A stretch of DNA of 64,000 nucleotides from the NCBI GenBank assembly GCA_963711845.1, contig CAVQFR010000007.1:2165-66164 (forward strand). Reading direction: 5' to 3'. The position numbers were made by a program, and so were the translations under genes. The stretch comes from an uncultured delta proteobacterium (GTDB lineage Bacteria > Desulfobacterota > BSN033 > UBA1163). Below are positions 5,614 to 45,834 of the stretch, piece after piece. Position 1 is the stretch's first letter, and each line of letters starts with the position of its first letter. The notes under the pieces are model-generated. The model was not told the origin of the DNA and did no database searches. It worked only from the letters and a program-made list of their open reading frames with translations.

Positions 5614-5652
5614 GTAAACCCCGTTAGAAAGTCTTTCACTTTCTAACGGGAG
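5614..5652. repeat. REP-like palindromic hairpin, probably a bidirectional terminator, containing the 17-mer GTAAACCCCGTTAGAAA
   Basis: ccgttagaaagt / ctttc / actttctaacgg forms a 12 bp stem with a 5 nt loop. It sits between the convergent ends of the STAND regulator (stop 5593) and HepT (stop 5656). The same 17-mer recurs inverted at 63741-63757. Confidence 0.6.
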
Positions 5653-5655
5653 GGT

Positions 5656-7046: not shown

Positions 7047-7090
7047 AAGCCTGGCATTCAAAATGTCGATGCCAGGCTTTTCCTTTTTGG
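7047..7090 (+). terminator. Rho-independent terminator-like hairpin with a T-tract
   Basis: aaagcctggcat (stem), 11 nt loop, atgccaggcttt (stem), then tcctttttgg. It lies in an ORF-poor region and follows three GGTWACC palindromes at 6924-7002. Confidence 0.5.
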
Positions 7091-11831: not shown

Positions 11832-11910
11832 CTCGGACGGACACATCTCGGAGGCAGTTGGCAGGTGGATTTCAGAGAGAAAGATGAATTCTCAGAAAGG
11901 AGGATTTAGG

Positions 11911-12435
11911 ATGAAGATAATGAAGGTACTTTTTGTTTTGCTGTTGATAGCGGGAGTGTTCCTTTTCACAGGCCCATCAACTCTGCAAGCTGGTGGGGGC
12001 GGTGTGGTGCCATGGGACGCTATCCAGATAAATCAGGCCCCGCGACCTTGGGTGGATTACAGAGGGGGCGAGCTTTCCGTCCTTTTCGAAAGATTTGACG
12101 CGAGCTCAGCGTTTGCTGGTGACGACTCCCTCTGTCCATTTGCACTATTGGTCACAAAGATGAGCTTCTCTCTGAAATTGAAGGTAGCCGGAATCCAACA
12201 GGCTTACAGCCAGGTGAGAGATGTTGTTGTCTGTCATGACAATTTCGACGGGCAGTGGGAAGAGCTGAAGAACTTTCTCAACGAAGTGGTTATCAGCGGC
12301 ATCTGCGGTTCTCCAGGCGTGTGGGGACTTCCTGATGTGGGTGGAAATTGGGTCGTTACAAAACTCGTAAACCCGGCTGCGAGCTCTGATGTCTTTATGG
12401 CACAGATAAATATCGCCGTTAAGTGTTCGCCCTAA
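11911..12435 (+). CDS. Small secreted Cys-containing hypothetical protein
   Basis: Start chosen at MKIMKVLFVLLLIAG, preceded by a strong SD (aaaggagga) 7 nt upstream. It has a signal peptide and 4 Cys. No recognisable domain. Confidence 0.5.
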   Translation: MKIMKVLFVLLLIAGVFLFTGPSTLQAGGGGVVPWDAIQINQAPRPWVDYRGGELSVLFERFDASSAFAGDDSLCPFALLVTKMSFSLKLKVAGIQQAYSQVRDVVVCHDNFDGQWEELKNFLNEVVISGICGSPGVWGLPDVGGNWVVTKLVNPAASSDVFMAQINIAVKCSP

Positions 12436-28775: not shown

Positions 28776-30450
28776 TCACCACTGAATTCCTTTCTTCTTA
28801 AGATAGCTTTGCGCATCATTGTTTCCTAAACTCGCAGCCTTTTTCAAATCTTCCAGAGCTTGTTCTGTTCTGCCAAGTTTCAAAAATGTATACCCCCGCT
28901 GTAAAAAAGATCAGGGAGGACGTCGGATCGAGTTTAATCGCTTTGTCAAAATCTTTAATAGCATCTTGAAGTTTATTCAATGAGGCGAGGGCCATCCCTC
29001 TTCTAAAATTAGCATATGAAAACTCAGGGTCGAGCTCAATTGCCTTATTGGCATCCTCCAGTGCTTGATGATAGTTTTTCAACATGAAATAGGCCCAGCT
29101 CCGATGGCAATAGGCATATACATAAGCCGGGTTAAGTTTTATTGCTTTATTTAGGTCCTCAATGGCCTTCTGGTAGTTGAGCAAACCAATATGGGCCCAT
29201 CCCCGGGTATTAAAGCCCCAGGCAAGGTTTGGGTCAAGTTTGATAGCCTGTTCGCTCTCGCTAAGGGCTTGTTGGTGTTGCCCCCAATCATTGTAGATTG
29301 CGGCTCTTCCGGCATAAGGTTTTGCAAAATTAGGATCGATCTCGATTGCCTTATCGAAGGCTTTCATAGCCTCTTGGTTCTTCTTATCTCTGTATCTCAA
29401 TGCATACCCTTTTTTAAACCAATCCACCGCGTTCAATTCGTTAACAGCTTTAGCGTATTTCTCTTGGCTGACTTTCTCTCCTTCGCCTTTCCCCATCTCT
29501 TTTTTCAATTTCTCAATCTCTTTTAGCGCCTCTTCCGTTTTTTTCTTCATCTCTTCCAAAGTCTTACTCTGCTCCTGATCCCTACGAACAATATCCATTG
29601 ATCTTGCTAATTCATCAGTTACTTGAACCTTTGGAGCAGGGGAAAGAGCGGGTTTTGAGATTTTTTCGGGGGATGGAGGTGGTTTCTTCTCTTTGGGGAC
29701 AACTTCTGGTGAAGGAGGCACGGTTGCTAAGGGCTTTTCAGGTAAGGGAGCTGTGATTTTCTCTTTAAAGGCTACCTCTGGTTGTGGGGTAGGGGAGATA
29801 TAAAATTTCCAGATCATCATAGCAGCAACTACCACAATCGCAGCGACCACAAAACCTAAAGCAGCCCTCTGCCATTGTGTGGGTTTAGCCTTTTTTTGGG
29901 TGGTTGCTTCCGGCTCAATTTGCGCCCCGTAAACCCGCACCGGCTTGATAATGTTCTTGACCTGATGCTCCCCCAGATACTTGTACCTCAAAGGCAGCTT
30001 GTTCTCGATCTGCTCGAATGCGCTCCCCGAGATACATATCCCTCCCGCCTCGGCCAAGCCTTCCAGCCGGGCCGCAATGTTCACTCCATCACCGTAGATC
30101 GCATTCCCTTCCTCGATTACATCCCCCAGGTTGATCCCAATCCGAAACGCCATCCTGCGGCTCTCAGGCAGCATGGCGTTCTTCGCCCTGAGCACCTGCT
30201 GGATCTCCACCGCACACTGCACCGCATCTACTACGCTCACAAACTCAGCCAGAACGTTGTCCCCAAGGGCGTCCACAATCCGCCCTCGGTGCTGCTGAAT
30301 GAGGCCCCTCATCATACCCTTGTATGTGTTCAGGGTATGGACGGTCCACTCTTCGTCCTCTCCCATGAGGCGGCTATACCCCTTCACATCTGCACTCAGG
30401 ATGACAGTGAGTTTACGTTTCACTTCTTGTGTGTTCATGGAGTCCTCCAT
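28776..30450 (-). CDS. Membrane-anchored class III nucleotidyl cyclase with C-terminal TPR repeats (paralog 1); one frame change in a T6 run at ~28905
   Basis: The ORF spans 28816-30450. The cyclase domain has the metal-binding Asp residues (ILSADVKGYS, DALGDNV). It has one TM helix (ALGFVVAAIVVVAAMMIW), a Pro-rich linker, a coiled coil and 5 or more TPRs. The ORF tail becomes nonsensical after AIKLDP. Shifting one base in the tttttt run restores a TPR ending …LQRGYTFLKLGRTEQALEDLKKAASLGNNDAQSYLKKKGIQW, with a stop at 28776-28778. The likely start is the second Met (MNTQEVKRKLT). Confidence 0.75.
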
Positions 30451-30493
30451 GGGTTAGTTGGGAGGTTGGTTTAAAACCCTATGGTTTGATAAG

Positions 30494-30522
30494 AGTCTAC
30501 TAATTTTGAATGGAAACTTCAA
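30494..30522 (-). promoter_or_regulatory. sigma70-like promoter (TTGAAG, 17 nt spacer, TAGACT) upstream of cyclase paralog 1; member of a conserved promoter family
   Basis: Minus-strand reading: cctgTTGAAG tttccattcaaaattag TAGACT, ~40 nt upstream of the start codon. It shares the aattcctgTTGA context with the elements at 42515-42543 and 44961-44989. Confidence 0.45.
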
Positions 30523-30686
30523 CAGGAATTATTTCTCATGTCTCGTGATCCGATATGTGACTTTGTTTTATCGATTACTACTTCAAATGCTGTAGGGTGG
30601 GACAAAAATGTAAAAACAATATTACAGGGAGAACTCCTTTTTCTTCCCAGATCCTGCCCGTCTCGAAGCCAATTTACCACTTCCAC

Positions 30687-30920
30687 CTACTTATCAACAG
30701 TCAGGGCAAGTAAGGTCGACTGAAAATTTACGATTGAAATAAACAAAAAAGGCAAGGTCAATTTGGCCCTTTTCTTTTCAATCAGCTCTTTTAAGGCTTC
30801 TGGAGTTATGAATCGAACATTTTCAGCCCGCCCAACGGTAACGATGAAGCAGATTATTGGAATAAGGAATGCAGCAATAACTGTGATGATCCAAAGCGAT
30901 TTCTTGACTCGATCCTCCAT
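30687..30920 (-). CDS. Small membrane protein, hypothetical
   Basis: 77 aa with one TM helix (LWIITVIAAFLIPIICFIV). It lies immediately downstream of the MauE-like gene with no gap. Confidence 0.4.
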   Translation of the reverse strand: MEDRVKKSLWIITVIAAFLIPIICFIVTVGRAENVRFITPEALKELIEKKRAKLTLPFLFISIVNFQSTLLALTVDK

Positions 30921-31427
30921 TCACCATATGAATCTTAATCTTTCTCTCCATGCCTTTGGCAGAACATTCCCCACAGCTTTCCAATGACGGACATCAGAAG
31001 GCGCCCACATCACGACCATCGCAAAGAACATCATTGGAAGATCAAGGAAGATGGTTACAGAGGCCAATGTGTCTCCGAACGCTCCAAAACAACCGCAATC
31101 AACGCTACGCCCATGTAAAAACACGATGGCCTTGGCAATAAAAAAAGATAAGCTCAGCAGGCCAATCCCCAAAGCCGATAATCGGGTTAACACTCCGAAA
31201 AGTAACCCTAATCCACACAGCAGTTCAATGAAAGGCAAGGCCAGTCCAAAAGGACGAGCTAAAAACATGGGCAGGATAACAAAGAAGTACACGGCATCCA
31301 CCGAATAACGCTCAATATCAACCAGTTTTCCAAAGGCCGCTGTAAGAAAAAAGGCTGCCAATATCAAGCGAAAGCAGAGAACAACAGTTTTTGTGGCTTT
31401 CTTACGTAAATTTTCAATCATATTCAT
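30921..31427 (-). CDS. MauE/DoxX-like integral membrane protein
   Basis: 168 aa with 4 TM segments and the characteristic VDCGCFG motif of the MauE (methylamine utilisation protein E) / DoxX-like family. Confidence 0.6.
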   Translation of the reverse strand: MNMIENLRKKATKTVVLCFRLILAAFFLTAAFGKLVDIERYSVDAVYFFVILPMFLARPFGLALPFIELLCGLGLLFGVLTRLSALGIGLLSLSFFIAKAIVFLHGRSVDCGCFGAFGDTLASVTIFLDLPMMFFAMVVMWAPSDVRHWKAVGNVLPKAWRERLRFIW

Positions 31428-31429
31428 CT

Positions 31430-31804
31430 CCTCGCCCCATTTTTTCTCGCTATTAGAAAATCAAGCGATTGGGCATCAATATTGAATTGGGACAGGAATG
31501 CGAGAGGATCGTCCATGCCTATTCCAATATTATCATGGACATTCAGATCAATGGAAACACCGGAAAGATCCGAATATCGCTCCCGTATGCGCACCCCAAC
31601 CTCACCCAAAGAATGCAGGTCACGATCTCTGACCCCAACCTTACGACCTTATACCGCATACTTCGACAGTCCCTTCAGAGCATAAATGAGAAGGTCTTGA
31701 AGAGTTGCTACTTCGGGCTCTTTGCCACAAACTCCTATTCTGGTACATCCCTCCCCTTTAGCCGTTTGCTCACATTGGCAGCAAAACATACTTTTTTCTC
31801 TCAT
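31430..31804 (-). pseudogene. hcp: Remnant of a hybrid-cluster protein (hydroxylamine reductase, hcp) gene: the N-terminal ~125 codons only, with an in-frame TAA
   Basis: Strong SD (aaggagg), then [51 protein letters not shown]. This is the diagnostic Hcp N-terminal Cys cluster (MFCxQCEQT … C … C). An in-frame TAA follows at 31649-31651. The frame then continues Hcp-like (GRKVGVRDRDLHS …) and ends at the MauE start. The expected ~400 further codons are absent. Confidence 0.55.
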
Positions 31805-31966
31805 TATTTTTCCTCCTTCTTTTAGATATGGGGGAAAGATATCTGCTTTCCTAATATTTACTCTAAAGATATCTCCAAAAGTCTATTCTTGCATTGACTT
31901 AAGTCAAACCTGGCAAACGGTTAGAAACGTGCAAGATTAAATAAAGCAGGATTTTGTTGCAATTTC

Positions 31967-33860
31967 TCACTTCAAGCCCGCCTTGCGCAGGGCACCAATA
32001 TGGCGATCCAAATCGGCCTGATTCTTGAAGAGGAGTGCTTTTGCATGATGTTCAAGAGAAAACTTGGGATCTATCTTCAGGACCTCTGCGACCTCATCCT
32101 GAGCTTCCTTCTCACGGCCCATCAAACTATAAGTGGCGGCTAAGCCCAAGCGAGGCATCGTACTATCAGGGGCGCGATGGAGAGCTTTCTTATATCCCTT
32201 TATCGCCTCTTCATACCGCCCCAATTGAACATAGGAAGAGGCCAACATTTGAGAATACCAGGCCGGGAAAGGATTGAGACGTATTGCCTTCTGATACATT
32301 GCAATCGCTTCCTCAAACCTTCCAGCATAGTATAAACTATAAGCCAATGCCGCCTGGACAAAATCTGAATTGGGATCGAGGGCGAGCGCCCGTTCCCCTT
32401 CTGCAATAGCCTTTTCGTACTGCCTTTTACCCAAAGAGATTCTTCCCAAAAAGGCGTGGCGCTTTTCCCGAAGAGTCGTCAAGGACGAGGGCCTTCTGTA
32501 CGCTTTCTTCTGCACGTCTTAGAGATTTTTCAGGGGATTCAGTTGTTCCATAACTCAAATCCATGATGAGAGTCGCGCCCAGGCGTAAGTAGGCTTCTGC
32601 ATATTTCGGGTCGAGAGCAATAGCTTCCTCTGCATATCTTCGGGCTTGGATATTACCCTCTTTAGTGAATCGACCTGACTGATGGGCTGATTGCAAGAGC
32701 TTCAAATATGCCTCAAGGTTGTCCGTGCCTTTTATCGGTAGGCCGGATCGTTCTACCCCCTCCAGCTTAACCTGGAGGGCAGATATGATCCTCAGCGTAA
32801 TCTCATCCTGTAAAGCAAAAATGTTTTTCAGATCTCGGTCGTAGCGTTCAGCCCATAAGTGGTGTCCCGTAAGGGCATCGATGAGCTGTGCGGTAATCCT
32901 CACTTTGTCGCCCGATTTGCGGATGCTTCCCTCCAGGACATACCGCACACCCAGTTCCTCGCTCACCTGCTTGACTTTCACGGGCTGACCTTTATAGGTG
33001 AAAGTTGATTGCCTTGAAATCACAAATAAGTGGGGAACCTTGGAGAGAGCGGTGATGATTTCCTCAGTGATTCCATCGCTAAAATACTCCTGCTCTTTGT
33101 CACCACTCATGTTGACAAACGGCAGCACAGCAATGGAGGGTTTGTCAGGCAAGGGGAAAGCCATTTTTTCTTTTGAGGCAACCTCAACTGGAGGACGAGT
33201 AGGGTGAAGGTATAAACGCCAAATTACAACAACTGCGGCTACTACAATTAGAATTGCTACAAGAATTGAAACTGGATTCTGCCATTTTCTTGGTTTAGCC
33301 TTTCTCTCACCGATCACCTTGCCAGCTCCCTCCGGCTCCATCAGAACTCGATAGACTCGTATGGGCTCTGCGATGTTCTTAACCGCTTGCTCCTCAAGAT
33401 ACTTATATCCAAGGTTTAACTTGTTCTTAACTTGATCAAAGGCAGTTCCAGAGATACAGATACCTCCTGCTTCAGACAGACTCTCTAAACGCGCTGCAAT
33501 ATTGACTCCGTCCCCCAAGATCTGCTCCCCATCCTCAATCACATCCCCAAGGTTGATCCCGATGCGAAACTCCATCCTGCGGTTCTTGGGTAACTCAGCA
33601 TTTCGGGTTTTGAGGTCCTCCTGAATATCGACAGCACACTCAACCGCATCGACCACACTGGCAAACTCGGCCAGGACATTGTCCCCAGGAGAGTCCACCA
33701 CTCGAGCCCGGTGTTGCCCCACCAAGTTCCGAATGACCTCCTTGTATGTCTTCAGAGTCCGGACAGTCCACTCCTCGTCTTCCCCCATGAGGCGACTGTA
33801 CCCCTTCACATCGGCACTGAGAATGGCAGTTAGCTTACGCTTAATTTCTTGGGTGGTCAT
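31967..33860 (-). CDS. Membrane-anchored class III nucleotidyl cyclase with periplasmic TolB-N-like domain and C-terminal TPR repeats (paralog 2); one frame change near 32470
   Basis: The 477 aa ORF holds the cyclase (MTTQEIKRKLTAILSADVKGYSRLMGEDEEW … VDSPGDNVLAEF … GGICISG), one TM helix and a TolB-N-like domain (LPFVNMSGDKEQEYFSDGITEEIITALSKV … QLIDALTGHHLWAERYDR). The 182 aa ORF holds the TPRs. The two overlap at 32427-32515. The shift occurs at gcgccacgcc. Confidence 0.75.
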
Positions 33861-33916
33861 TAAATTCTCCTCTATGCTTTATAAATGAAGAGTTCGTGCA
33901 AGGGCTTGAGGGTCGA

Positions 33917-36900
33917 CTATTTTCGCTCTTCTATGGAAGACAGGGCCTCTTTAGCCTGTTTCAGGAACCCTTCGGCCTCGGTTTGTTCAAAGATCTGGAT
34001 AGCCTCGGAGATGTATTCCTTGGCTTGCTCGGTCTTCCCTTTCATCCTATACAGCAAACCCAAATCGAGATAGGCCATCCCCATCATGCCTTTAGCGCCG
34101 ATTTCTTTAGCAACCTCTATTGCTCGATTGAAATGTTCTTCGGCCTTCTTGCTGGCGAACGGGACGTTCTTAACGAGAAAGCCTATATTCTTAGCCATTG
34201 TTGATAGACTGATCGGCCCCGATCCCTCCACAATCTGAGAATAGACCTTCCCCAGGGCATACTCGGACCGGGCATAATGGGGTCGCCACTGGTTTTCCAG
34301 ACATTCTCGTTGTCCCTCTTCCAATAGCTTCAACCCCTGGCTCATCTGGCCTTTGGCAATTAACAACACCCCCATATAAATACACGCCTGTATTCCGATC
34401 CATCCAGCCCCAAACTTCCGGCTGTAGCTCAACACTTCCTCAAGAGCGGTTTCAGCCTTATCCAGCTGGTTGCTGAGCAAATAGCTCAAACCAAGGTTCA
34501 GCCTTAAAAGCTGTGAGTAGAAAGGGTCCACAGCGAGCCGGGTTCCGGTCTCCAGGCATTCAATGGCCGAATGGAAATCACTACGCAAAGCGTAGCCACC
34601 TCCCATAATCCCGTGACCCATCACCAAGCTTCGAATATTTGAATGTCTCTCACCATAGTCCAGAAGGGCTTTCCCGGCTTCAAGGGTCTTTTTCGTCTCT
34701 CCGCTATAATAGTACGCTGCCCCTAATCCGCCAAGGGACTTGAAATACAAGTACGGATCTGACTCGAAAGACCTGGAGATATCCTGGGCCCTCTGTCCAA
34801 AGTCAACCGCTTCTTCCAGAAGGCCCAATCCGGCACAGGTCCAGGTAAGCCAGGTGCAGGCGTAGCCGATCACCCTCCTGTCTTCAATCTCCTCCCCAGT
34901 CTTGAGAGCTTTGCACAAGTATTCATAAGAGCCTTTCGCCTTCCCGCTGCAATGCAAGCCAAAGCCGAGCCATGCATAGAACATCCCGAGTTCGGCCTTG
35001 CCCACGGACTCAGCCAGTCCTTCATGATTGCTGAACAAACTGATGAGGCCCCTGAAATCGCCACGGTAGTAAAAGACATAGGCCCACTTGTTGAGCAGAT
35101 CGATGAGGAGCCTCTTTTCCTCATCCGTCATGGCTGGTTTATTCTTAAGAAGATCGAAAGCCTCTTGATAGTACTGATGGGATTCTTCAATGGCATACCT
35201 TTTGAGACTCTTCTCGCCCGACTTCATAAGATAATCGACGGCCTTGTGTAGAGATTGACCCCGCTTGAAATGAAAGGCCAGGGTCTCATAGAACTCTGAA
35301 AGCCTCTCGCGAAACAACTGCTCCATCACAAGAGCAATTCGCTCATGGACTGCCTGGCGCTCCCTTTTAAGAAGACCGCTGTAAACCACCTCCTGGGTCA
35401 GGGCATGCTTGAAAACATATTCCAGCTCCGGCTGAAAAGACCTTATCCGGATCAGGTCGAACTGCTCCAACCTGTGGAGATGATGGTCCAGCCGCTCCTT
35501 GAACTCCGTGATTTTTGTAAGGATCTCATAGAGAAAGGTCCTCCCAATGACCGAGGCTTCCTGAAGAATGCGCTTCATCTCCTTCTCCAGTCGGTCGAGC
35601 CTTGCGGAGATGACGCCTTGTACTGTTGGAGAAATGTCTGCCTCGCCGATTGGCCGACTTAGCTTCCAGTTGCCGTTGTCGCGGATGAGGGTGCCCGACT
35701 CGATCAGGGAGTTGATAACCTCTTCCAGATAAAAAGGATTACCCTCTACCTTCTCCTGAATGAATTTCCTCAACTCCTGGGGGATGGTCTTGGACTTCAG
35801 CAGAGATTCCATCATGTCCTGGCTATCCGAGGCTGAAAGATCCTGGAGATTGATCTCCTGGTAAGTCTTGCCAAGGGCACCCAACTGATGGCTGGTGAAG
35901 AGGCTAAAAGGAAGCCTGTATGCACAGATAAACAGGACCGGATAACTGAACTCCGATAGAATCGAACGAAGAAGATCAAGGGACGATGGATCTGCCCAGT
36001 GGATGTCCTCCAGACAGATAACCGTCGGGCCACTCTGTGCCAAAGCGGAAAGAATGGCCTGGACTGCTTTTAACAGACTCGATCTCCAGAATTCAGGGCT
36101 CACCCCTTCTATCTCTGGGTAGCTGAGGCTATAAAGGCTCCCTACATAAGGGAGCACATCCTTTTTCTTTCCAATCAGGTTTTCTATACCTGATTCGATT
36201 TTTCCCCTCACTTTTTCTGTAGAATCGCCTTCTTCAATTTGCCAGGTTCGATTCAGGAGATCGATCAGTGGAAAATAGGGAATGTTTTGGGAATAGGCGT
36301 AAGCGTGGCCCTCACGCCATTGGATTTCATTGAGATCCAATGTGGCCCTGAATTCCTCAAGAAGTCGGGTCTTTCCGGTGCCCGCATCACCACAAATAGA
36401 GAAGATTCCCCCTTTGCCCTGACGCAGCCTTTGCACTGCCTCCTGAAGTTGGGCCAATTCCGCCTTCCTGCCGATGAGATCAGCCCTCAACCCAAGGGTA
36501 CGATGCAAAGTAAGCGGCTTCTCCTTGGTAGATAGCAGCCTGTAAACTTGCACTGCCTCTACCTTCCCTTTGATCTGGGCAGGCTCTAACCTTTCAAAAA
36601 CAAAATGCCCTTCTGCCAGCTGATAAGTCACTGAACCCACCAGAATCTCTCCTGCCTTGGCCAGATCGCTCAGCCGAGAGGCCAGATTGATGGTGTCTCC
36701 CAACACGCCCGTAGTGACTCCTTCCTGATCCATCTGACCTGTCACAACGAGACCCGTATTGATGCCGGTGTGCATGGATAAAGATCTTTCAATCCTTTGC
36801 TCAACCCGCGGACTCATCGCCTCTACAAAGGAGTGTATTTCCTTAGCCGCCCGGATGGCCCTTACCGGATCATCTTCGTGGGCCTTTGGCACACCAAAGA

Positions 36901-37267
36901 AGGCCACGACTGCATCACCAATAAATTTTTCAATGGACCCATTGTACTTTTTCACGATAGAGGTAATCTCTGCGAAGACTTGACTCATGATCTCCTTGAC
37001 GTCTTCAGGATCAAGCCTTTCCGACATAGCGGTATAACCTGATAGGTCAGAGAAAAGAACGGTGACCTGCTTTCGCTCCCCCTCAATCTGCGGTTCTATT
37101 CTTCCAATTACTGCTTCTTCTAATTTCTGTCCGCACTCACCGCAGAATTTGTCTGCAGGAAGGTTTTCAAAATGGCAATTGGGGCAGAGCAATATTAGTT
37201 TTGCACCACATTCCTTACAGAACTTTCTTATCTCTGGATTTTCAGTCTGGCATTTCGGACATTTCAT
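33917..37267 (-). CDS. Multidomain signalling protein: N-terminal double zinc ribbon, class III cyclase domain, STAND/AAA+ P-loop NTPase, C-terminal TPR array (1116 aa)
   Basis: Zinc ribbons (MKCPKCQTENPEIRKFCKECG … CPNCHFEN … CGECGQKL). Cyclase (KQVTVLFSDLSGYTA … EKFIGDAVVAFFG … GINTGLVVTG). Walker A (ICGDAGTGKTRLLEEF). Long helical/TPR C-terminus. A 56 nt gap separates it from paralog 2 downstream. Confidence 0.8.
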   Translation of the reverse strand: MKCPKCQTENPEIRKFCKECGAKLILLCPNCHFENLPADKFCGECGQKLEEAVIGRIEPQIEGERKQVTVLFSDLSGYTAMSERLDPEDVKEIMSQVFAEITSIVKKYNGSIEKFIGDAVVAFFGVPKAHEDDPVRAIRAAKEIHSFVEAMSPRVEQRIERSLSMHTGINTGLVVTGQMDQEGVTTGVLGDTINLASRLSDLAKAGEILVGSVTYQLAEGHFVFERLEPAQIKGKVEAVQVYRLLSTKEKPLTLHRTLGLRADLIGRKAELAQLQEAVQRLRQGKGGIFSICGDAGTGKTRLLEEFRATLDLNEIQWREGHAYAYSQNIPYFPLIDLLNRTWQIEEGDSTEKVRGKIESGIENLIGKKKDVLPYVGSLYSLSYPEIEGVSPEFWRSSLLKAVQAILSALAQSGPTVICLEDIHWADPSSLDLLRSILSEFSYPVLFICAYRLPFSLFTSHQLGALGKTYQEINLQDLSASDSQDMMESLLKSKTIPQELRKFIQEKVEGNPFYLEEVINSLIESGTLIRDNGNWKLSRPIGEADISPTVQGVISARLDRLEKEMKRILQEASVIGRTFLYEILTKITEFKERLDHHLHRLEQFDLIRIRSFQPELEYVFKHALTQEVVYSGLLKRERQAVHERIALVMEQLFRERLSEFYETLAFHFKRGQSLHKAVDYLMKSGEKSLKRYAIEESHQYYQEAFDLLKNKPAMTDEEKRLLIDLLNKWAYVFYYRGDFRGLISLFSNHEGLAESVGKAELGMFYAWLGFGLHCSGKAKGSYEYLCKALKTGEEIEDRRVIGYACTWLTWTCAGLGLLEEAVDFGQRAQDISRSFESDPYLYFKSLGGLGAAYYYSGETKKTLEAGKALLDYGERHSNIRSLVMGHGIMGGGYALRSDFHSAIECLETGTRLAVDPFYSQLLRLNLGLSYLLSNQLDKAETALEEVLSYSRKFGAGWIGIQACIYMGVLLIAKGQMSQGLKLLEEGQRECLENQWRPHYARSEYALGKVYSQIVEGSGPISLSTMAKNIGFLVKNVPFASKKAEEHFNRAIEVAKEIGAKGMMGMAYLDLGLLYRMKGKTEQAKEYISEAIQIFEQTEAEGFLKQAKEALSSIEERK

Positions 37268-37296
37268 TTTTGACTCCGGTAATTTGTGTCCTCTTT

Positions 37297-40200
37297 TTAC
37301 AGCTTTTGGAAGAGCTTTTTTGTGCGGGCCAAGTGATAATCCATTCCCATCCTGCTGAACATCTCTTCAGACCTTCTCAGGTATTCAAGGGCTTTTTCCT
37401 TTCTTCCGGCATCCAAATAAAGCTCGCCGAGAGTTAAGCAACCCACAGCATACGCTGGCTTCGTTTCTAGATCATCCAGCATTTTCATTCCTTGCAGAAT
37501 GTACTCTTCTGCCTTATCTATCTGCGATTCTTCCATTTTTCCAACGGTCCTTCCAAGTTGAAGCCATGCCTCTCCTTCAAAATATTTTTCATGGTTCTTT
37601 TGCGCTAGATTCAGAGATCGCTCAGCATGAACTTTTGCCTCATTCAAATTACCCAAATCAAAATGAACCAGACTTAAAGCCCAGAGATGAAGGGACAACC
37701 AACCAGGGGCTCCGATATGCATCTTCATGTTAAGGCCTTTTTCCGCGAATCCCAGGGCTTTGCCAGGATCTCCCATCAAACGATATCCATCCCCAATGAA
37801 GCACCAGGCAAGGGGCAAGAAGAAGACTGCTTTCAATTTTTCAAGGTATCCAATGCTGGTCTCCATATGTTTTGCAGAATTCTCTCCATCGCCTTTAGGG
37901 CTGAATAAACACCCGTACAGGAATTCCGCAATGGCTATGCTATATACGTTATTGGCTTCTTGTGCTAAAGAAAGAGCTTTATTACATGCCTGCTCTCCTT
38001 TTCCAAATTCCCCCACATATCCCAGGCCATGTCCATAGTTGGCATACAAATACGAACGCAGATCAACGGGCATGCCGAATAATTCACCCTGCCTTTGGGT
38101 TTTTTCAAGCGAAGCCAAGATTCTTGGAGTTAAGTGCACCACTTTCCGGTATTCTCCCGCGACATCCATGGAAAAAGTTAGCATCACACCGATCCGAGCC
38201 GTTATTTGACTGTCCTGTAACCGCTCTGCTTCCTCAAAAGCATCCTGCTGATATTTCATTCCCAGCGCAGCATTTCCTTTAGCTGAATAAAAAGAGCCCA
38301 GATGACTGCATAAGATTGCCAAACTTTTTTTGTCCTTAACACCTTTACAAAGCGTCTCTCCCTCCTGGAGTATCTTGAAAGAATCTTCAGGATAAGCTAG
38401 GAGTCTCATCGAATGCGCCGTCGAAAGGATGACTTCAATCTGTTCCTTCTTGTTCTGATCTGTTTCGCCCATTTGCTTGAGGATACCGATCGCATCTCTG
38501 TAAAAACGGAAGGCCTCTGTCGGGGAATAGCTTCTCATGGCTTTGTTGCCTGATAATTTCAGGTATTGGTAAGCCTTTTCTAAGTCATCACTCTTGGAGT
38601 AATGATAAGCTAACATCTCATAGAACTCTTCCAACCTGTCCGGGTAAATCTCTTCGATGGCCCTTCCAATCTTCTCGTGGATCTCCTTTCTCCTCTTGAG
38701 AAGTAAGCTGTTATAGGCCACCTCCTGGGTGAGGGCGTGTTTGAAGATATATTCCAGCTCAGGGAAGAGTCTCTTCTCATAGATAAACTCCAGGCCCTGA
38801 AGGTTTAAGAGATGGGATTTAAGCTCTTCCTTCATCTCCATGATGGCCTGAAGGATACGAAACGCAAACTCTCTCCCAATCACCGATGCCACCTGCATGA
38901 TCCTCTTGAGGCTCTCCTCCAAACGGTCCATCCGGGCCGCTATGATCCCCTGGATGGTATCGGGAACCTGAATATCAGAGGGTTTTTTACTTAATAAATA
39001 GTGATCCCCCTCTCTCCGGATCGTCCCGTTTTCTAACAACGTATGGGTAAGCTCCTCCATGAAGAGAGGATTCCCAGCAGCTTTGTTCAGGATCAATTCC
39101 CTAAGCTCAGGGACGATCTCTCCTTCCTTGAGAATAGACTGAACCAGTTCGGCACTTGTCTGGAGAGAGAGCTGATCTACACGGATGTTGGTGTAATACG
39201 ATTTGCTCCCCCAGCGATGGGTATATTCCGGCCTATAGAGAAGGATCAAGAGAATGGGTGTGTTGGCCAGCCAGCCGATGAAGTAGTCGAGGAACTCTTC
39301 AGAGGTCTTGTCGATCCAGTGAAGGTCTTCGAAAACAAGAACCAAGGGCTTTTTTTGGCTTTCTCGAATCAGTAGATCCCTAATGGCTTCAAAGATCTTC
39401 TCTCTTTTCTGTTTGGGCTCAAGCTTAAGGTGGGCTTCATCATCTACTTTAAGAGAGAGAAGCTCTTGGAAAGGTGAGAGCGCACTTTTAAGCTTCTCAT
39501 TAAGCTGAAAGACTTTCTCTTTTATCTTCCTCTTAATAGAAAACTCCTGCTCCCCTTCTTTGATCTCAAAATATGATCTCAGGATATCCAGTATGGGCAG
39601 GTAGGCTATCGAGCCTCCGTAGTGGAGGCACCGTCCTTCGAGGTAAACGTATTCTTCTCTTTGGAACATCTTCCTCGTCTCAAAGATGATCCTTGACTTC
39701 CCCACTCCAGCTTCGCCCACGACCCCTACCATCTGCCCGGACCCGGATCGAACCTTTTCCAAAGCCTCTTGGAGAAATTCCATTTCTCTCTTTCTGCCAA
39801 CAAATTTCGTAAGGCCTGCCACAGCAGCCGCTTCGATCCTTGTTTTTACTTTACTGGGCATTAAGAGCTCATAGGCTTCTTGAAGCTCCTCTTTCCCCTT
39901 CACCTGGACCTTGCCCAATGACTCGAACTTGAAGAAATCTTTTGCAAGTTTGTAAGTATGTCCTGATACTAAAATGGTGCCAGGCTTTGCCGTGTTCTCC
40001 ATCCTGGAAGCAAGGTTAGTGGTATCACCGACCGCTGTGTAATCCATCCGCAAATCATCCCCGATTGAGCCTACCACTACCGGCCCGGAGTTGAGCCCCA
40101 TACGCATTCTAAAATCAAATCCGGACTCCCTCTTCACTTTTTCCCCGTACTCCACCAGGGCCTTTTGAATCGACAAGGCAGCATAGCAGGCCCGTTGAGC

Positions 40201-40663
40201 ATGGTCCTCATGAGCTACAGGTGCACCGAAAAGAGCCATCACTCCATCCCCCGTAAACTGATTGATGGTCCCTTCGTATTTGTGAATCTCATCCATTGAA
40301 ATCCTGAAACATCCGTCCATGATTTGATGGACCTCCTCTGGATCGAGCTTCTCAGACATGGAGGTGTAATTGAGCCACATCCGCAAAGAGCACCGTTACA
40401 AGTTTCCGTTCACCTTCGATAGAGCTGCGGGTAGTGAGGATCTTATCAGCCAAGAATTTGGGGGTGTAGGATTTGGGCTTTGAGTAGTCGATAGGAGGAG
40501 CTTCTTTACGCTTCTCAAGAGCAGTCCCGCACTCACCGCAGAATCTGAATTGGGGCGGATTAAAAAAATTGCAGTGCGGGCAGACCTTTTCTAACTTAGT
40601 TCCACATCCTCCACAAAATTTCATGCCTTCAGGGTTTTCAGTCGAACATTTCTTGCACTTCAT
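37297..40663 (-). CDS. Second double-zinc-ribbon / cyclase / STAND NTPase / TPR protein, tandem paralog; one frame change at ~40352-40386
   Basis: The 103 aa ORF holds the zinc ribbons (MKCKKCSTENPEGMKFCGGCG … CPHCNFFN … CGECGTAL) and the start of the cyclase (GERKLVTVLFADV). It overlaps the 1029 aa ORF, which holds the rest of the cyclase (GDGVMALFG), the Walker A (VVGEAGVGKSRIIFE) and the TPRs. It lies 29 nt upstream of 33917-37267. Confidence 0.75.
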
Positions 40664-40766
40664 GGTGCCTCTCTTTCACGACAACTAGCGAAAAAACATT
40701 GCCCGCTGTGAGAAAGGCTTGCTGCTACTCTCCTCTGGTGAATCAAGCTATTTTAGACTGGCTCTC

Positions 40767-42245
40767 TTAGAAGACATCCTCGACACCTTTTTTCAAAGGG
40801 ATCCTTAATGAAAAGATCGTTCCGGAAGCAAAACAATCTGACCTGTTGCCGATAAACTGACAGAGAGATATCCGCCCCGGGCATTCATCGATGTCCTCTG
40901 GGATGTAGCTGCAACGGGTGCTCTCGAAATCGATTTCGAAACCATAACGTTCTGAAAATACCTTGGCCCTAAGAAGGTCTGCGCCGGAACCGCCGGCATT
41001 GAAGTCGTAGGGAGCCTTCGTAGAGTAATAGTTTGTATCCTGGGTGTGAAAGAAGCCGGTGAGCACCAGTCTTTGGTTCTCGGCTGTAATTCCGGTGCCA
41101 AAGTCCCGAAAACGGATAACCATTTGGTCACCCTCGATTTTGGCCGTCACTTCAATCCTACCCTGGTCAGGAGTATTCTCGACGGCATTTTTCAGTATGC
41201 CGCTGCATACCTTCTCAAGGGCACTCCGATTTGCAATGATCGTCACCCCCTTGTCGAAATCCTGGACGATCTCTACTTCTCTTTGCCCCATGGCTCTGCG
41301 GGTGTCGTCACATATGGACTGGAGAAAGTCCTCGACGAAAAGCTTCTCTGTACGTTCCTCGCCAACTTTGTAGATCGAATCGAGGTAATCCGAAAGGAGA
41401 TTGAGCACCTTGCTGTACTTGCCTCGACGCACTCCGTTCTGGTATTCAATGAAATGAAGGGCATTCTCGATGATCTTAGTAATTTTTGTCCGGTCTTCTA
41501 CCGATCTTTCTCTGATGATGTTGTCAATCTCCTCCTGAAGTCGCATCAAGCGATGTAGATTCCTTTGGGCGATGATCACGCTCCTCTCCAGTCCGGTGAT
41601 CTTTGCCTGGCTGAGCCCACTTGAAATCCTAGCAAACGTGGCTGAGATAAGGGCAAGGGGCGTTGCCAACTCGTGAGAAAGATGGTTGATTGCCCTCTCT
41701 TTCGCCTTGTTCATCGACTTCAACTCCTCGTAGAGCCTGGAGTTTTCAAGGGCGATGGTGGCATAGTCCGCGATGGAGGAGAGCATTTCCACATCGTCGT
41801 CCGTGAAATTTCCCCTGTTCTTATTCAGAGCCTGAAGGGTTCCCACGCACTCCTTCTGTCTGTTGATCAACGGGACACAGAGGATGTTTCTTGTCCGGAA
41901 ACGTGTTTTTTCGTCCACGTCGGCATCGAACCGTGGATCACTGGACGTGTCATTGACGATGGTGGGGGCTCGGTTCTGGAACACCCAGCCTGCTATCCCG
42001 TACGTTGCAGGGATCCGGATCTCGTTCTTCTTGAGGTCCGTCGAGACGAGGGACCATAGTTCGTTAGGTTTCTTGTCGTACAAGAATATGGAACTCGCCT
42101 GGGTGTCCATGATACCGTTCGTGTGTTGGATAATAAGAGGAAAGAGTGCCTCCAGATTCATCTCCGACGTAATGATCTGACCCACCTGGAGAAGTTTCGC
42201 GTAACGCTCGACTTTCTGTTCCACTGTATAATCCCTTACCCTCAT
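40767..42245 (-). CDS. GAF-domain sensor histidine kinase with a C-terminal Cys-rich extension (paralog of 22072-23535)
   Basis: 492 aa. GAF region, H-box (INHLSHELATPLALI), N box (ILKNAVENT), G box (DFGTGI). The tail is CSYIPEDIDECPGRISLCQFIGNRSDCFASG. It lies ~100 nt upstream of the tandem cyclase genes on the same strand. Confidence 0.8.
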   Translation of the reverse strand: MRVRDYTVEQKVERYAKLLQVGQIITSEMNLEALFPLIIQHTNGIMDTQASSIFLYDKKPNELWSLVSTDLKKNEIRIPATYGIAGWVFQNRAPTIVNDTSSDPRFDADVDEKTRFRTRNILCVPLINRQKECVGTLQALNKNRGNFTDDDVEMLSSIADYATIALENSRLYEELKSMNKAKERAINHLSHELATPLALISATFARISSGLSQAKITGLERSVIIAQRNLHRLMRLQEEIDNIIRERSVEDRTKITKIIENALHFIEYQNGVRRGKYSKVLNLLSDYLDSIYKVGEERTEKLFVEDFLQSICDDTRRAMGQREVEIVQDFDKGVTIIANRSALEKVCSGILKNAVENTPDQGRIEVTAKIEGDQMVIRFRDFGTGITAENQRLVLTGFFHTQDTNYYSTKAPYDFNAGGSGADLLRAKVFSERYGFEIDFESTRCSYIPEDIDECPGRISLCQFIGNRSDCFASGTIFSLRIPLKKGVEDVF

Positions 42246-42246
42246 G

Positions 42247-42422
42247 TGGGGCCCATTTTCAGAAGCTTCCGGGCTTCTTGTAGATCGAACTCTGCCCCGA
42301 TTTCGGCGAAGATTGCTTCAGCTTTTTCTAGATGGGCGCGATCCTTGAATGTGTTTTGCCCCACATTCCTTACAGAACTTCTTTGTCTCCGGATTTTCAG
42401 CCTGGCATTTCGGGCATTTCAT
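42247..42422 (-). pseudogene. Deletion remnant of a zinc-ribbon / cyclase / STAND / TPR paralog: first ~25 codons fused to a C-terminal fragment
   Basis: ORF reads MKCPKCQAENPETKKFCKECGAKHIQGSRPSRKS*, nearly identical at the DNA level to the 5' end of 33917-37267. A +2 frame reads …KAEAIFAEIGAEFDLQEARKLLKMGPT*, which resembles the extreme C-terminus of the 1116 aa protein (…AIQIFEQTEAEGFLKQAKEAL…). Confidence 0.5.
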
Positions 42423-42514
42423 TTTTGGCCTCTCCTTTGAAAGAGACCCAGGATACAATTATTAAAGATTGAGTTTGGTTGGAAGTTTAACCTGAGGTCT
42501 TACGTTCTGATAAA

Positions 42515-42543
42515 AAGTTACTACTTTGGAATAAAAAGGTCAA
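42515..42543 (-). promoter_or_regulatory. sigma70-like promoter (TTGACC, 17 nt spacer, TAACTT), same family as 30494-30522 and 44961-44989
   Basis: Minus-strand reading: cttgTTGACC tttttattccaaagtag TAACTT, ~90 nt upstream of the remnant ORF. It could drive the remnant, GAF-HK and tandem cyclase genes through to 31967. Confidence 0.4.
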
Positions 42544-42697
42544 CAAGAATTGAAGGTTAGCACCATCCCAGATTTCTACCGGTCAAAACGCCAATCCGAA
42601 GCTTCCACCTATCTTCATTCTTAGATAGCCTTGAAGGTAACATTACTGGAAGAAACATTTATTAAATGAAGAGGAACTGTTTCCAAGTCACCTACCC

Positions 42698-44608
42698 TCA
42701 CTTCAGTCCCGCCTTGCGCAAGGCGTTAACAACTTTATCTATTTCTGATTGATCCTTATAGGGAGTGACTGTCTTTGCAAAGTAATCCAGTGAGAACTTT
42801 GGATTTATCCTGAGGACTTCTTCAGCCTCAGCACGGGCCTCCTTCTCTCGACCCATCATACTGTATGTAGTCGCCAGACCAATATGGGCAATGATGATGA
42901 TCAGGCGCACGCTGAAGTGCCTTTCTTATATGCCGAAACCGCCTCTTCAAACCGACCCGTCATCCGGAGGGCATGGCCAAAGTATACAAAGGTATAGGCC
43001 GCAGCATTGGGGTTGAGTCGGATTGCTTTTTGGAACATTGGAATGGCTTCCTCCGGCCGGCATGCAAAGAGCAGGGCCGAGGCATATGCAGCATAGGCAC
43101 CCGATCCGCTGGGATCGAGGGCTACAGCCCGTTCCCCTTCAGCAATCGCCTTGTCATACTCCCTTTTGTAATATAGAGAACAGTCAACATGATGTGGGCA
43201 ATGGGTATGGAATCATCCATGGCAAGGGCTTTTTTCGCCAGCTCTTCAGCTTTCTCAAGAGTCTCCCGAGGGGACTTCGTGTTGCCAAGCTAATAATCGG
43301 TCATGTAGACCCCACTGAGTTGGGCATAACCTACTGGATTTTCTGGACACATTGAAATAGCCTCCTCTGTAAGCCGCCGAGCCACGTTGTTGTCCTCGAT
43401 ATTGAGACGGTCACTGTATTTGGCCGCCTCCATTAGCTTCAACATAGCAATCGAAACCTTGCTTCCCCCTGTAGTATTTCGAGTACGCCGAGGATATTTC
43501 CCCCTCCGTCAGCTTCACTCGGATGGCCGTCAAGATCTTCATGGTGATCTCATCCTGCAGGGCAAATAGGTCTTTCAGATCACGATCGTACCGCTCTGCC
43601 CAGAGGTGATGTCCTGTGAGGGCATCGATCAACTGGGCATTAATCCGGATGCGGTCAGCAGACCTCTGAACGCTCCCCTCCAGCACATACCGAACCCCAA
43701 GCTCCTCGCTCACCTGCTTAACCTTCACAGGTTTGCCCTTATAGAAAAAGGTTGACTGTCTGGATATCACAAATAAGCGGGGAACTTTGGAGAGAGCGGT
43801 GATGATGTTCTCGGTGATCCCGTCACTAAAAAACTCCTGTTTGGGGTCTTCGCTCATGTTCACAAAGGGCATTACGGCAATAGAGGGCACATCGGGCAAG
43901 GGAAACGCCATCTTTTCTTTGGAGGCGACTTCAATCGGAGAAGTGGGACGTAAGTATGAGCGCCAGATCACAACAATTGCGGCTACTACAATTAGGATTG
44001 CTATAACAATGAAAGCCGTCTTCTGCCATTTTGTTATAGCAGCCTTTTTCTCTGCGGCGATACGGGGGACAGCAGCCCCAGGCTCCAATAGAACACGATA
44101 CACCCGCACCGGCTTGGCGATGTTCTTAACAGCCTGTTCCCCAAGAAATTCATATCCAAGAGATAATTTATTCTCCACCTGATCATAAGCTGTTCCGGAT
44201 ATGCAGATGCCTCCTGCTTCGGAGAGACTTTCCATACGGGCCGCAATGTTGACTCCATCGCCGAGGATCTTATCCCCCTCCTCGATTACATCCCCAAGGT
44301 TGACACCAATTCGAAACTCCATCCGGCGGTTTTCAGGTAATTCTGCATTTCGAGCTTTAAGTTCTTTTTGGATCTCAACAGCACACTCAACCACATCCAC
44401 CACGCTGGCAAACTCGGCCAATAGATTATCCCCTGGGGCATCGACCACTCGGCCATGGTGTTGCTGAATGAGGTTGGTCATCACCTCCTTGTAAGCATTC
44501 AGGGTGTGAACGGTTCCCATTCTCATCTTCTCCCATGAGACGACTATAACCCTTCACATCGGCACTGAGGATGGCAGTGAGCTTACGTTTAACTTTTTGG
44601 GTAGTCAT
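42698..44608 (-). pseudogene. Degraded third paralog of the membrane cyclase / TolB-N-like / TPR gene, with multiple frame disruptions
   Basis: Fragments in three frames. The N-terminus is MTTQKVKRKLTAILSADVKGYSRLMGEDE. The cyclase core is VDAPGDNLLAEF…GGICISG, with a TM helix and TolB-N-like domain (…QLIDALTGHHLWAERYDR). The TPR tail is …GLATTYSMMGREKEARAEAEEVLRINPKFSL…RKAGLK. At least 4 frame breaks (near 44520, 43400, 43200 and 42900) and missing residues. Confidence 0.6.
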
Positions 44609-44960
44609 GGAATCCTCTTCTAAAGTCTTATAAATGGAAGGATAGAAACAACTTCTTATAAGACTTTGGTTTTAGAATGGTTTATGGGCCCCTAGGGAGG
44701 TAAAACCCTCTCGGAGGCTTCATATCGGCCCCTTTTGGATTTCCCATTTCATTTCCAACTCCAAAAGGTTGAGGTTGTCTTGTCTTTTGATTTATGATAG
44801 GAAGGAAATTATCTTACCCCGGCAGCAGAAAGTCCCCCCCGGTTTAAACGGGAGAGGATGAATGCGCCAACTTTTGGCCGGGATGTCGCCCCGTTTGGGC
44901 GTTCGTCACGTGCCACGGGCTTTGTCCGTGGGGCTCCACATACCATCAAATGCTGTTAAC

Positions 44961-44989
44961 AAACTACTCATTTTCTACGGGAAAGTCAA
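44961..44989 (-). promoter_or_regulatory. sigma70-like promoter (TTGACT, 17 nt spacer, TAGTTT), third member of the conserved cyclase-gene promoter family
   Basis: Minus-strand reading: cctgTTGACT ttcccgtagaaaatgag TAGTTT, ~350 nt upstream of the start of degraded cyclase paralog 3. It lies in the divergent region shared with the phosphodiesterase gene. Confidence 0.4.
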
Positions 44990-45069
44990 CAGGAATTTGA
45001 AGTTGCCAGTTTTCGGTTTGGTAGGGTTTCAACATATTCCTCAGGCGTCGCATAGAGGGGAGGGTTGAT

Positions 45070-45834
45070 ATGAAAATCAAGGTACTCGGGTGTTCAGGCG
45101 CAGAGTTTCCTAACCATCATTTTTCAAGTTTCTTAATAGATGGCAAAATCTTATTCGACGCTGGGAGTGTAACGGATGTCCTCAGCGAGAAAGATCAGCT
45201 GAAGATCAAAAGTATTTTTGTGACCCATGCCCATCTAGATCATATAAAAGGAATCCCTTTTCTCGCGGATAATATCCTCATCGGAAATAAACAGGGGAGG
45301 GTTGATATCTTCAGCATCCAACCTGTGATCAAAGCAATCAAGGAGAGTCTCTTGAATGATGTCGTATGGCCCGATTTTACCAAGATTCCACGTGGCCTTG
45401 GTAGCATCTTGAGGATGAACAAACTGAAGCCTGGCGAACCCGTCAGAATTGACGGTTATTGCATTGTACCTTTTGAAGTTAACCACGCTGTCCCTGCGGT
45501 GGGATATCTCGTCGAGAGCCAAAAAAAGAGGCGGCTCTTCTACAGTGGCGACACAGGACCCACTGACAAGACATGGAAGGAAATTGCAGTGAAGATCGAT
45601 TGTCTTATCCTTGACGTTACTTTTCCGAATAAAATGGCAAGAGAGGCGATCAGAACAGGACATTTGACTCCGTGCTTATTAAGAATGGAGCTTTCAAAAA
45701 TGAAAAATATGCCTGAAAGGATTTATGTCACACATGCAAAACCCCAGTACTCGGAGACCATCGCCTCAGAACTGAAAAGACTTAGGATCAATCATCTTAG
45801 GTTATTGAAAGACGGAGAATCTATCGAGCTTTAG
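45070..45834 (+). CDS. Class II 3',5'-cyclic-nucleotide phosphodiesterase (CpdP-like, metallo-beta-lactamase fold)
   Basis: 254 aa. N-terminus KVLGCSGAEFP. Class II PDE signature H-x-H-L-D-H (FVTHAHLDHIKGIPFL). SD gagggga upstream. Confidence 0.7.
   Translation: MKIKVLGCSGAEFPNHHFSSFLIDGKILFDAGSVTDVLSEKDQLKIKSIFVTHAHLDHIKGIPFLADNILIGNKQGRVDIFSIQPVIKAIKESLLNDVVWPDFTKIPRGLGSILRMNKLKPGEPVRIDGYCIVPFEVNHAVPAVGYLVESQKKRRLFYSGDTGPTDKTWKEIAVKIDCLILDVTFPNKMAREAIRTGHLTPCLLRMELSKMKNMPERIYVTHAKPQYSETIASELKRLRINHLRLLKDGESIEL

Follow-up and report, generated by a model that had tools for sequence, protein, structure and literature searches.

A plastic chromosomal island of probable cyclic-mononucleotide signalling genes in an uncultured Thermodesulfobacteriota bacterium

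The locus described here lies at positions 28776-45834 of a 64-kb stretch of DNA (the window, contig CAVQFR010000007.1) from an uncultured Thermodesulfobacteriota (Desulfobacterales-like) bacterium of the sulfate-reducer type. It carries five class III cyclase genes, all on the minus strand between 28776 and 44608, which belong to two unrelated families: three membrane genes (memA, memB and memC) and two cytoplasmic genes with a STAND NTPase (STAND1 and STAND2). A GAF histidine kinase gene is embedded among them, and a gene resembling class II phosphodiesterases of the metallo-beta-lactamase (MBL) fold is transcribed divergently from the array. With a probability of about 0.6, we read the locus as a chromosomal, compositionally plastic island of cyclic-mononucleotide (cNMP) signalling genes. 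The concentration of cNMP-metabolism genes, already pointed out in a preliminary description made from the sequence of the window, is real and non-random, and it is conserved as a locus in related contigs. Every gene family represented here is known and has its annotation in public databases, and as a cluster the island is unremarkable.

In the proposed scheme, the two sensor-cyclase families would be the inputs. The membrane cyclases are predicted to be single-pass proteins with the catalytic domain at the cytoplasmic N-terminus and, as the sensor, a periplasmic TolB_N-like/TPR or TPR-only module. In the cytoplasmic STAND cyclases, a ligand bound to the TPR array would activate the protein, and NTP-dependent oligomerisation of the STAND module would then join the N-terminal cyclase domains into active dimers. 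The cNMP would most likely be read by the embedded kinase through a cAMP/cGMP-type GAF domain, and the divergently transcribed phosphodiesterase would remove the signal. Such a locus would be a compact natural set of writer, candidate reader and eraser for cyclic mononucleotides in an uncultured anaerobe. Its evolution is one of birth and death, in which large sensor-cyclase families turn over inside one hotspot by deletion, paralog recombination, relocation and pseudogenisation, and only one of the five cyclase genes is certainly intact.

Phosphodiesterase, cyclases and kinase recur together

The surroundings of 80 phosphodiesterase homologs (41-91% identity) from other species (Thermodesulfobacteriota, Nitrospirota, Syntrophobacteraceae and others) were surveyed. 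A cyclase gene was found within 10 kb at 20 of the 80 loci. Twenty-one cyclase genes lay at most 6 kb from the phosphodiesterase gene and one at 6-10 kb; the density per 100 kb was 4.0 at 0-1 kb, 2.3 at 1-3 kb, 2.7 at 3-6 kb and 0.3 at 6-10 kb, or roughly tenfold higher within 6 kb. The phosphodiesterase-cyclase linkage is facultative but recurrent.

Closer to the window, the locus is kept in the relatives L003-L005 and L007-L011, with a different gene set in each. The close relative L007 (ENA ERZ25039602 contig_25302) served as reference. Cyclase genes adjoin the kinase gene in 5/5 contigs that carry it: they flank it in L007, L008 and L009, and in L010 it sits between the phosphodiesterase and a cyclase gene. 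Between the window and L007, the ratio of nonsynonymous to synonymous substitution rates (dN/dS) is 0.13-0.25 for the phosphodiesterase, kinase, STAND1 and memB genes, the kinase having 0.13, which indicates purifying selection. The preliminary description had called the locus rapidly evolving; this holds for gene content, with its deletions, chimeras and relocation, and does not hold for protein sequence. Positive selection on the sensors is ruled out at the whole-gene level by the same values.

The cyclase domains keep their catalytic residues

All five domains matched Pfam Guanylate_cyc (PF00211; gathering cutoff 21.9 bits), with 41.2 bits for memA, 35.3 for memB, 35.8 for memC, 82.3 for STAND1 and 85.7 for STAND2. 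Residues were mapped from alignments to 3mr7, Ma1120, P. aeruginosa CyaB and Synechocystis Cya2. Both metal-binding Asp and the transition-state Asn and Arg are kept at the aligned positions in 5/5 domains (catalytic residues, the specificity pair included, in memA: D21, D60, D64, A117, N124 and R128; memB: D17, D56, D60, Q113, N120 and R124; memC, in the reconstructed frame: D17, D57, D61, K114, N121 and R125). None is therefore a pseudo-cyclase by sequence, and the earlier suggestion that some members might be regulatory pseudo-cyclases can be dropped.

The specificity positions were located through K101/D157 of Ma1120 (PMC4215837), a canonical adenylyl cyclase being expected to have Lys three residues before the G of the GD motif and Asp/Thr seven residues before the Asn. 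None of the five has this pair: four are non-canonical (Asp with Ala, Gln or Lys, and Gln with Thr) and STAND1 combines Lys with Gly. The residue before the GD motif differs between members, as first described: the three membrane cyclases have D there, STAND2 has Q and STAND1 has K. The membrane subfamily is characterised by Asp in place of the Lys (113 of 120 close homologs), and its commonest pair is D/R (103 of the 150 nearest representatives). The K/G pair is conserved in 106 of 120 STAND1 homologs.

The reversed donor/acceptor pattern of the D/R-type enzymes would suit guanine over adenine. It is unlikely, in our estimate, that the membrane subfamily (Asp for Lys; Arg/Gln/Lys for Asp) makes cGMP or another non-cAMP nucleotide and that the island is a self-contained non-cAMP circuit. 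If this were true, sensor cyclases, a cGMP-type GAF kinase and a class II phosphodiesterase of relaxed specificity would form a circuit widespread among sulfate-reducing Thermodesulfobacteriota. The conserved Asp/Arg-type pair is the most interesting loose end: a very large uncharacterised subfamily with a reversed pair is a testable hypothesis, and the linked GAF kinase and phosphodiesterase could reveal its nucleotide.

Membrane cyclases

As originally described, three membrane cyclase-TPR genes lie on the minus strand and two of them carry a TolB_N-like periplasmic domain. The FlgO match is above the 22.6-bit cutoff in memC (24.2 bits) and below it in memB (19.9 bits). memA lacks this domain and has instead a Pro-rich linker followed by TPR repeats (TPR_1, 108 bits). 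PF04052 TolB_N is present in longer homologs, and some members of the family are named 'TolB-like protein' by JGI. Otherwise the subfamily is named 'adenylate/guanylate cyclase domain-containing' or 'tetratricopeptide repeat' protein by NCBI and 'adenylate cyclase' by JGI. A search with the cyclase domain retrieved 49,549 cluster representatives at E<=1e-3, of which 6,593 reached E<=1e-30. No experimental work on the cyclase/TolB_N/TPR architecture was found in the literature searched.

The near-identical N-termini had been ascribed to all cyclases of the locus and taken as a sign of recent duplication. The shared start is present in the three membrane cyclases only, as the STAND genes begin with MKC(P/K)KC. 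Among cluster representatives at 50% identity, the 150 nearest to the membrane cyclase domain repeatedly show the motif ILSADVKGYSRLMGEDE or a close variant, and 3mr7, the domain's closest solved structure, has a divergent related version, ILAADMAGYSRLM. Because the motif is family-wide and holds the first metal-binding Asp, its conservation reflects purifying selection and not youth. Recent duplication also fails against the overall identities: memB and memC share 77% of their protein and 75% of their DNA sequence, memA is 64% identical in protein to either of them over the cyclase and transmembrane region only, and STAND1 shares only 32% with STAND2. Between the membrane and STAND families, the cyclase domains are 24-28% identical.

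The best solved relatives of the membrane domain are 3mr7, a structural-genomics 'adenylate/guanylate cyclase/hydrolase' (E 5e-36), and M. avium Ma1120 (E 1e-14), which share the ...ILAADxxGYSRLM... and GVNxAARL motifs with it. Both have the canonical Lys/Asp pair (K101/D157 in Ma1120, PMC4215837). In place of this Lys, memA, memB and memC all carry Asp, and the Asp is replaced by Ala, Gln and Lys, respectively; the wider subfamily is mostly Asp/Arg. The guanylate cyclase XC_0250 of Xanthomonas campestris, a class III domain with TPRs, resembles the membrane cyclases in this combination, in its non-canonical specificity residues and in its genetic linkage to a cNMP-binding effector, the cGMP receptor XC_0249 (PMC3770947). 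However, XC_0250 is soluble and lacks the transition-state Asn and Arg, XC_0249 is a cNMP-domain GGDEF protein and not a GAF kinase, and their locus has neither an array nor a phosphodiesterase.

STAND cyclases

The two tandem zinc-ribbon/cyclase/STAND-ATPase/TPR genes of the preliminary description were recovered. STAND1 matched Pfam DZR and AAA_16 (89.2 bits; cutoff 32.6), with GDAGTGKT as Walker A and VICLEDIHW as Walker B. Walker A and B are present in both genes, with TPR_12 / TPR_MalT regions C-terminal to them, as expected of STAND NTPases. More than 5,800 STAND1 homologs share the same architecture. An identity as TOMM system kinase/cyclase fusions (TIGR03903) was rejected: the scores of 273.5 and 334.3 bits fall short of the 705.75-bit cutoff, and the matches begin at profile positions 274 and 326, so the N-terminal Ser/Thr kinase domain is absent.

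The same domain order at ~1,100 amino acids is found in M. tuberculosis Rv0386, Rv1358 and Rv2488c (class IIIc cyclase, MalT-type ATPase, TPR and LuxR helix-turn-helix). Castro et al. are said to have described, in 2005, a Gln/Asn pair and a guanylyl cyclase side activity in Rv0386. According to a preprint, Gln/Asn replaces the Lys/Asp pair in this enzyme, which has guanylyl cyclase side activity (10.1101/2024.03.06.583649). By the published residues, STAND2 is like Rv0386 in having Gln at the Lys position. Unlike the Rv0386 group, both STAND proteins carry a double zinc ribbon at the N-terminus and lack a C-terminal helix-turn-helix, and STAND1 keeps the Lys. Paralogous class III cyclases also stand side by side in M. 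tuberculosis, where Rv1318c, Rv1319c and Rv1320c are HAMP-linked, six-transmembrane proteins of one family; the present island differs in mixing two cyclase families with a phosphodiesterase and a kinase.

As a separate observation, in contig L002 (4408-11503), surrounded by hydantoinase and fatty-acid genes, an 89% identical STAND1 homolog and another zinc-ribbon/cyclase/AAA_16/TPR gene stand in tandem. Such pairs of STAND cyclase genes thus occur outside the island too.

The histidine kinase as candidate receptor

The kinase recognised in the cluster from the outset matched Pfam GAF at 65 bits and HATPase_c at 39.7 bits (cutoff 26.4), with a weak HisKA match (17.7 bits). An H-box, HLSHELATPL, is present together with HATPase_c, as in sensor histidine kinases. 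The best solved match of its GAF domain is 4mcw, an HD-GYP protein (E 1e-31), followed by the cAMP-binding GAF domains of Anabaena CyaB2 (E 3e-28), the cGMP-binding GAF-A of PDE5 (E 3e-27) and PDE2A (4e-25). Heme- or redox-type GAF domains matched at E ~1e-7. Of the NKFDE motif, the kinase domain has N, K, F and D but V in place of the final E. The similarities to cNMP-binding GAF domains make it plausible that the kinase is a cNMP receptor.

The phosphodiesterase-like protein

The divergent gene at 45070 had been called a class II cNMP phosphodiesterase, and the domain matches agree. The 254-amino-acid product scored 45.8 bits against PF02112 PDEase_II (cutoff 23.7), over profile positions 82-166 of 340 only, and 72.5 bits against Lactamase_B_2. 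The metal motif THAHLDH is present, and this region aligns locally with yeast PDE1 (THAHLDHIKG...NDVVWPDFT). PF02112 and PF23023 (Apyc1) both occur in homologs above 90% identity, and NCBI names homologs of the protein 3',5'-cyclic-nucleotide phosphodiesterase. Against the NCBIfam equivalog NF041851 the protein scored 40 bits, far short of 400. An AlphaFold model (pLDDT 83.7) matched PDE1, YhfI, Apyc1 and RNase Z about equally in a fold search (PDE1, TMq 0.81; YhfI, TMt up to 0.81; Apyc1, TMq ~0.72); the RNase Z chains matched are longer, at ~300 amino acids, than the 254 here.

Apyc1, YhfI and PDE1 are grouped as class II MBL phosphodiesterases, of which YhfI prefers cAMP/cGMP (Hobbs et al., PMC9117128). 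Our protein shares the HxHxDH motif with yeast PDE1, B. subtilis YhfI and phage or bacterial Apyc1 at fold TM values of 0.72-0.81, is close in size to YhfI and Apyc1 (~250 amino acids), and is 16-20% identical in sequence to the three. Together these data support its assignment as a class II phosphodiesterase-like protein, whose substrate may be a cNMP.

Turnover of the island

In the window and in L007, the island runs from the phosphodiesterase gene to the gene labelled lipo215. The order in L007 is phosphodiesterase, mem634, STAND1117, remnant, kinase, STAND1173, mem629, MauE, a memA 3' remnant and lipo215. In L003 and L004, the phosphodiesterase gene is divergent from at least five membrane cyclase genes with ParE/Phd pairs interspersed. 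L010 has phosphodiesterase, kinase and a membrane cyclase; L011 has phosphodiesterase, two membrane cyclases and a STAND gene; and L008 has lipo215, a membrane cyclase, the kinase, a second membrane cyclase and a toxin-antitoxin pair.

Intact counterparts of memB and memC, and of STAND2 in its 5' part, are found in L007 as orthologs. The L007 memA has lost 1.3 kb at the N-terminus so that only the 3' end is left, and the window copy is near-complete. STAND1 is the ortholog of the 1117-amino-acid gene of L007 (94% amino acid identity), which stands at a different position in the island there. STAND2 is chimeric relative to L007: the first ~680 nucleotides are orthologous (~93% identical) and the rest comes from another paralog. 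The internal-deletion remnant reported earlier was found at 42242-42458, where a zinc-ribbon N-terminus 91% identical to the start of STAND1 is fused to a STAND/TPR-like C-terminal tail. As L007 shares it, the remnant predates the split of the two lineages. It is certainly a real product of decay. Structural differences this large (the memA deletion, the position of STAND1, the STAND2 chimera and the shared remnant) are not sequencing errors.

Synonymous divergence (dS) between the window and L007 ranges from 0.018 for memB to 0.23-0.32 for STAND1 and the STAND2 N-terminus, and this spread across the island (0.018-0.32) points to mosaic recombination. The memB segment (window 31806-33847 vs L007 15245-17285) is 99.5% identical at a dS of 0.018, and its neighbouring genes are 90-93% identical with dS of 0.1-0.3. 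Judging by these values, the memB segment was likely exchanged recently between lineages.

Other observations concern the related contigs. ParE/PhdYeFM toxin-antitoxin pairs lie between cyclase genes in L003 (106-624 and 7031-7565) and L008 (13596-14130) and are absent from the window. L009, from the same sample as L008, has two heavily fragmented STAND cyclase genes (221-2659 and 4533-8240) around the same kinase, and a duplicated kinase fragment at 4330-4608.

Evidence against the signalling island, and alternative readings

Several findings weigh against a working cNMP signalling island. Four of the five cyclase genes are frameshifted, so the node in this genome may be largely non-functional, or the assembly error-prone. 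The MBL protein model is as close in structure to RNase Z as to PDE1 and YhfI: RNase Z gave the best E-value of the fold search (TMq 0.77). No cyclase gene was found within 10 kb at 60 of the 80 distant phosphodiesterase loci. In the kinase GAF domain, V replaces the last Glu of NKFDE, as it does in 4mcw, a protein for which no ligand is known. The scanned neighbours yielded no cognate response regulator, no CRP-like regulator and no other cNMP-binding effector. Finally, STAND1 homologs at 88-89% identity sit amid unrelated metabolic genes.

STAND1 is the only uninterrupted cyclase open reading frame (ORF). memC, noted at the start as badly degraded, has five uncompensated 1-nucleotide indels, hence at least five frameshifts, relative to its intact 634-amino-acid L007 ortholog (90.8% nucleotide identity), a density that makes real decay likely. 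Three further frameshifts are absent from the preliminary description. memA has an extra A at ~28925 that puts its last ~45 codons out of frame (listed ORF 28816-30450), as judged against L007 and the 557-amino-acid relative P0257; intact relatives have 553-557 amino acids. memB is split by an extra C at ~32459 into ORFs 32427-33860 and 31967-32515; it is 99.4% identical in nucleotides to the intact 629-amino-acid L007 gene, with this single indel, and intact relatives have 630-633 amino acids. In STAND2, an extra C at ~40372 interrupts the LFADV-x-NYT metal-Asp motif two codons past the first Asp.

It is quite possible, if somewhat short of an even chance, that most of this decay is an assembly artefact, the memA, memB and STAND2 frameshifts being long-read consensus errors in an island that is functional save for memC and the remnant. 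Each of the three genes differs from an intact close ortholog by exactly one inserted base, in memB at 99.4% identity; the related contigs carry Flye-style (long-read-assembler) names, and L009 is heavily fragmented. Other genes of the window are split too: a HisKA/HATPase_c/REC kinase gene (724-1940, two ORFs), an NPHP3_N-type NTPase (STAND)/TPR/BTAD gene (2225-5593, three ORFs) and a DUF362 gene (47369-49910, two ORFs). On the other hand, the three insertions lie outside long homopolymers, many ORFs of 340-970 amino acids elsewhere in the window are unbroken, and consensus errors leave the five memC indels in 1.9 kb and the large deletions unexplained. At 60290-60510, the ORF of an M17 peptidase and the start of hemE share 220 nucleotides. 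The split and overlapping genes outside the island point either to a genome rich in pseudogenes or to indel errors from long reads.

Alternatively, the locus could be a recombination and duplication hotspot that gathers unrelated signalling paralogs, with the phosphodiesterase and kinase as bystanders sharing no common pathway. The gene content, different in every relative, would fit, as would the decay of many members, the single or paired occurrence of close STAND1 homologs in unrelated contexts, the very large size of both cyclase families (49,549 representatives and more than 5,800 STAND1 homologs) and the many phosphodiesterase loci without a nearby cyclase. Against it stand the roughly tenfold cyclase density near phosphodiesterase homologs in several lineages, the constant adjacency of the kinase and cyclase genes, a kinase GAF domain that resembles the cNMP-binding type, and purifying selection on the phosphodiesterase, kinase and STAND1 genes. 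We consider this explanation rather improbable, and the signalling island remains the preferred reading.

STAND NTPase/TPR architectures are typical of immune sensors. An anti-phage or conflict island, in which the cyclases would sense infection and raise a Pycsar-like cNMP alarm with the Apyc1-like phosphodiesterase as regulator or safety valve, would draw on that architecture, on the match of 5/5 cyclases to PADLOC PycC models (STAND up to 80 bits, membrane 22-31 bits), on the PF23023 Anti-Pycsar_Apyc1 domain of phosphodiesterase homologs, on the ParE/Phd pairs in L003, L004 and L008 and on fast gene turnover. Any class III cyclase is expected to match PycC, however, and PADLOC gave only generic PycC and TPR matches, with no Pycsar effector (PycTM/PycTIR) or any other match among the neighbours; dN/dS is low, the periplasmic sensor domains of the membrane cyclases suit environmental sensing, no tRNA or Rfam RNA was found in scans of the window and no integrase or phage-gene matches among the scanned neighbours, and YhfI and other MBL phosphodiesterases of bacteria act as ordinary enzymes on cAMP and cGMP (Hobbs et al., PMC9117128). 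The defence module offered as an option in the preliminary description is thus very improbable, and we rejected it as the best explanation.

Gene content and surroundings

The genes of the locus were delimited from the ORF listing, a six-frame reading and Pfam/NCBIfam scans (Table 1). A phmmer search of all window ORFs with four cyclase domains as queries found no further cyclase domain in the 64-kb window, so the earlier gene map is essentially right.

Table 1. Features of the island, with the specificity pairs of the cyclases
Feature	Position	Strand	Description	Specificity pair
memA	28776..30450	minus	cyclase, one transmembrane helix, Pro/Lys-rich linker, coiled coil, ~5 TPRs	D60 / A117
Promoter-like 44-nt element	30487..30530; copies 42508-42551, 44954-44997	minus	possible shared promoter	
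MauE/DoxX-family membrane protein	30921..31427	minus	syntenic passenger gene; Pfam MauE 64 bits	
memB	31967..33860	minus	cyclase, transmembrane helix, FlgO/TolB_N-like periplasmic domain, TPRs	D56 / Q113
STAND1	33917..37267	minus	double zinc ribbon, class III cyclase, AAA_16 STAND NTPase, TPR array; 1116 amino acids	K114 / G187
STAND2	37297..40663	minus	architecture as STAND1; in tandem with STAND1	Q135 / T209
GAF histidine kinase	40767..42245	minus	492 amino acids; candidate cNMP receptor; Pfam GAF, HATPase_c	
STAND cyclase gene remnant	42242..42458	minus	~25 N-terminal zinc-ribbon codons and ~40 C-terminal codons	
memC pseudogene	42698..44608	minus	cyclase, transmembrane helix, FlgO/TolB_N-like domain, TPRs	D57 / K114
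Class II (MBL-fold) 3',5'-cNMP phosphodiesterase-like gene	45070..45834	plus	254 amino acids; divergent from the cyclase array	

The 44-nt element occurs in three copies that are 75% identical. One precedes memA, another precedes the STAND remnant and with it the kinase gene, and the third lies in the divergent intergenic region between memC and the phosphodiesterase gene. The minus-strand sequence of the element is TTGAC(n), 17 nucleotides, TA(g/a)nnT, and the element may be a shared promoter. The MauE/DoxX slot is also filled in L007 (95% amino acid identity). Ordinary chromosomal genes (Lnt, CMAS, radical SAM, HemE and PepA) flank the island.

More signalling genes lie upstream of the island, namely an 837-amino-acid PDZ/GAF/SpoIIE (PP2C) phosphatase (13184-15697) and another histidine kinase, which matches GAF_2 weakly (22072-23535). 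A 974-amino-acid ORF at 7805-10729 has a thrombospondin type 3 repeat as its sole Pfam match, and its neighbouring ORFs at 10890-12435 have no Pfam match.

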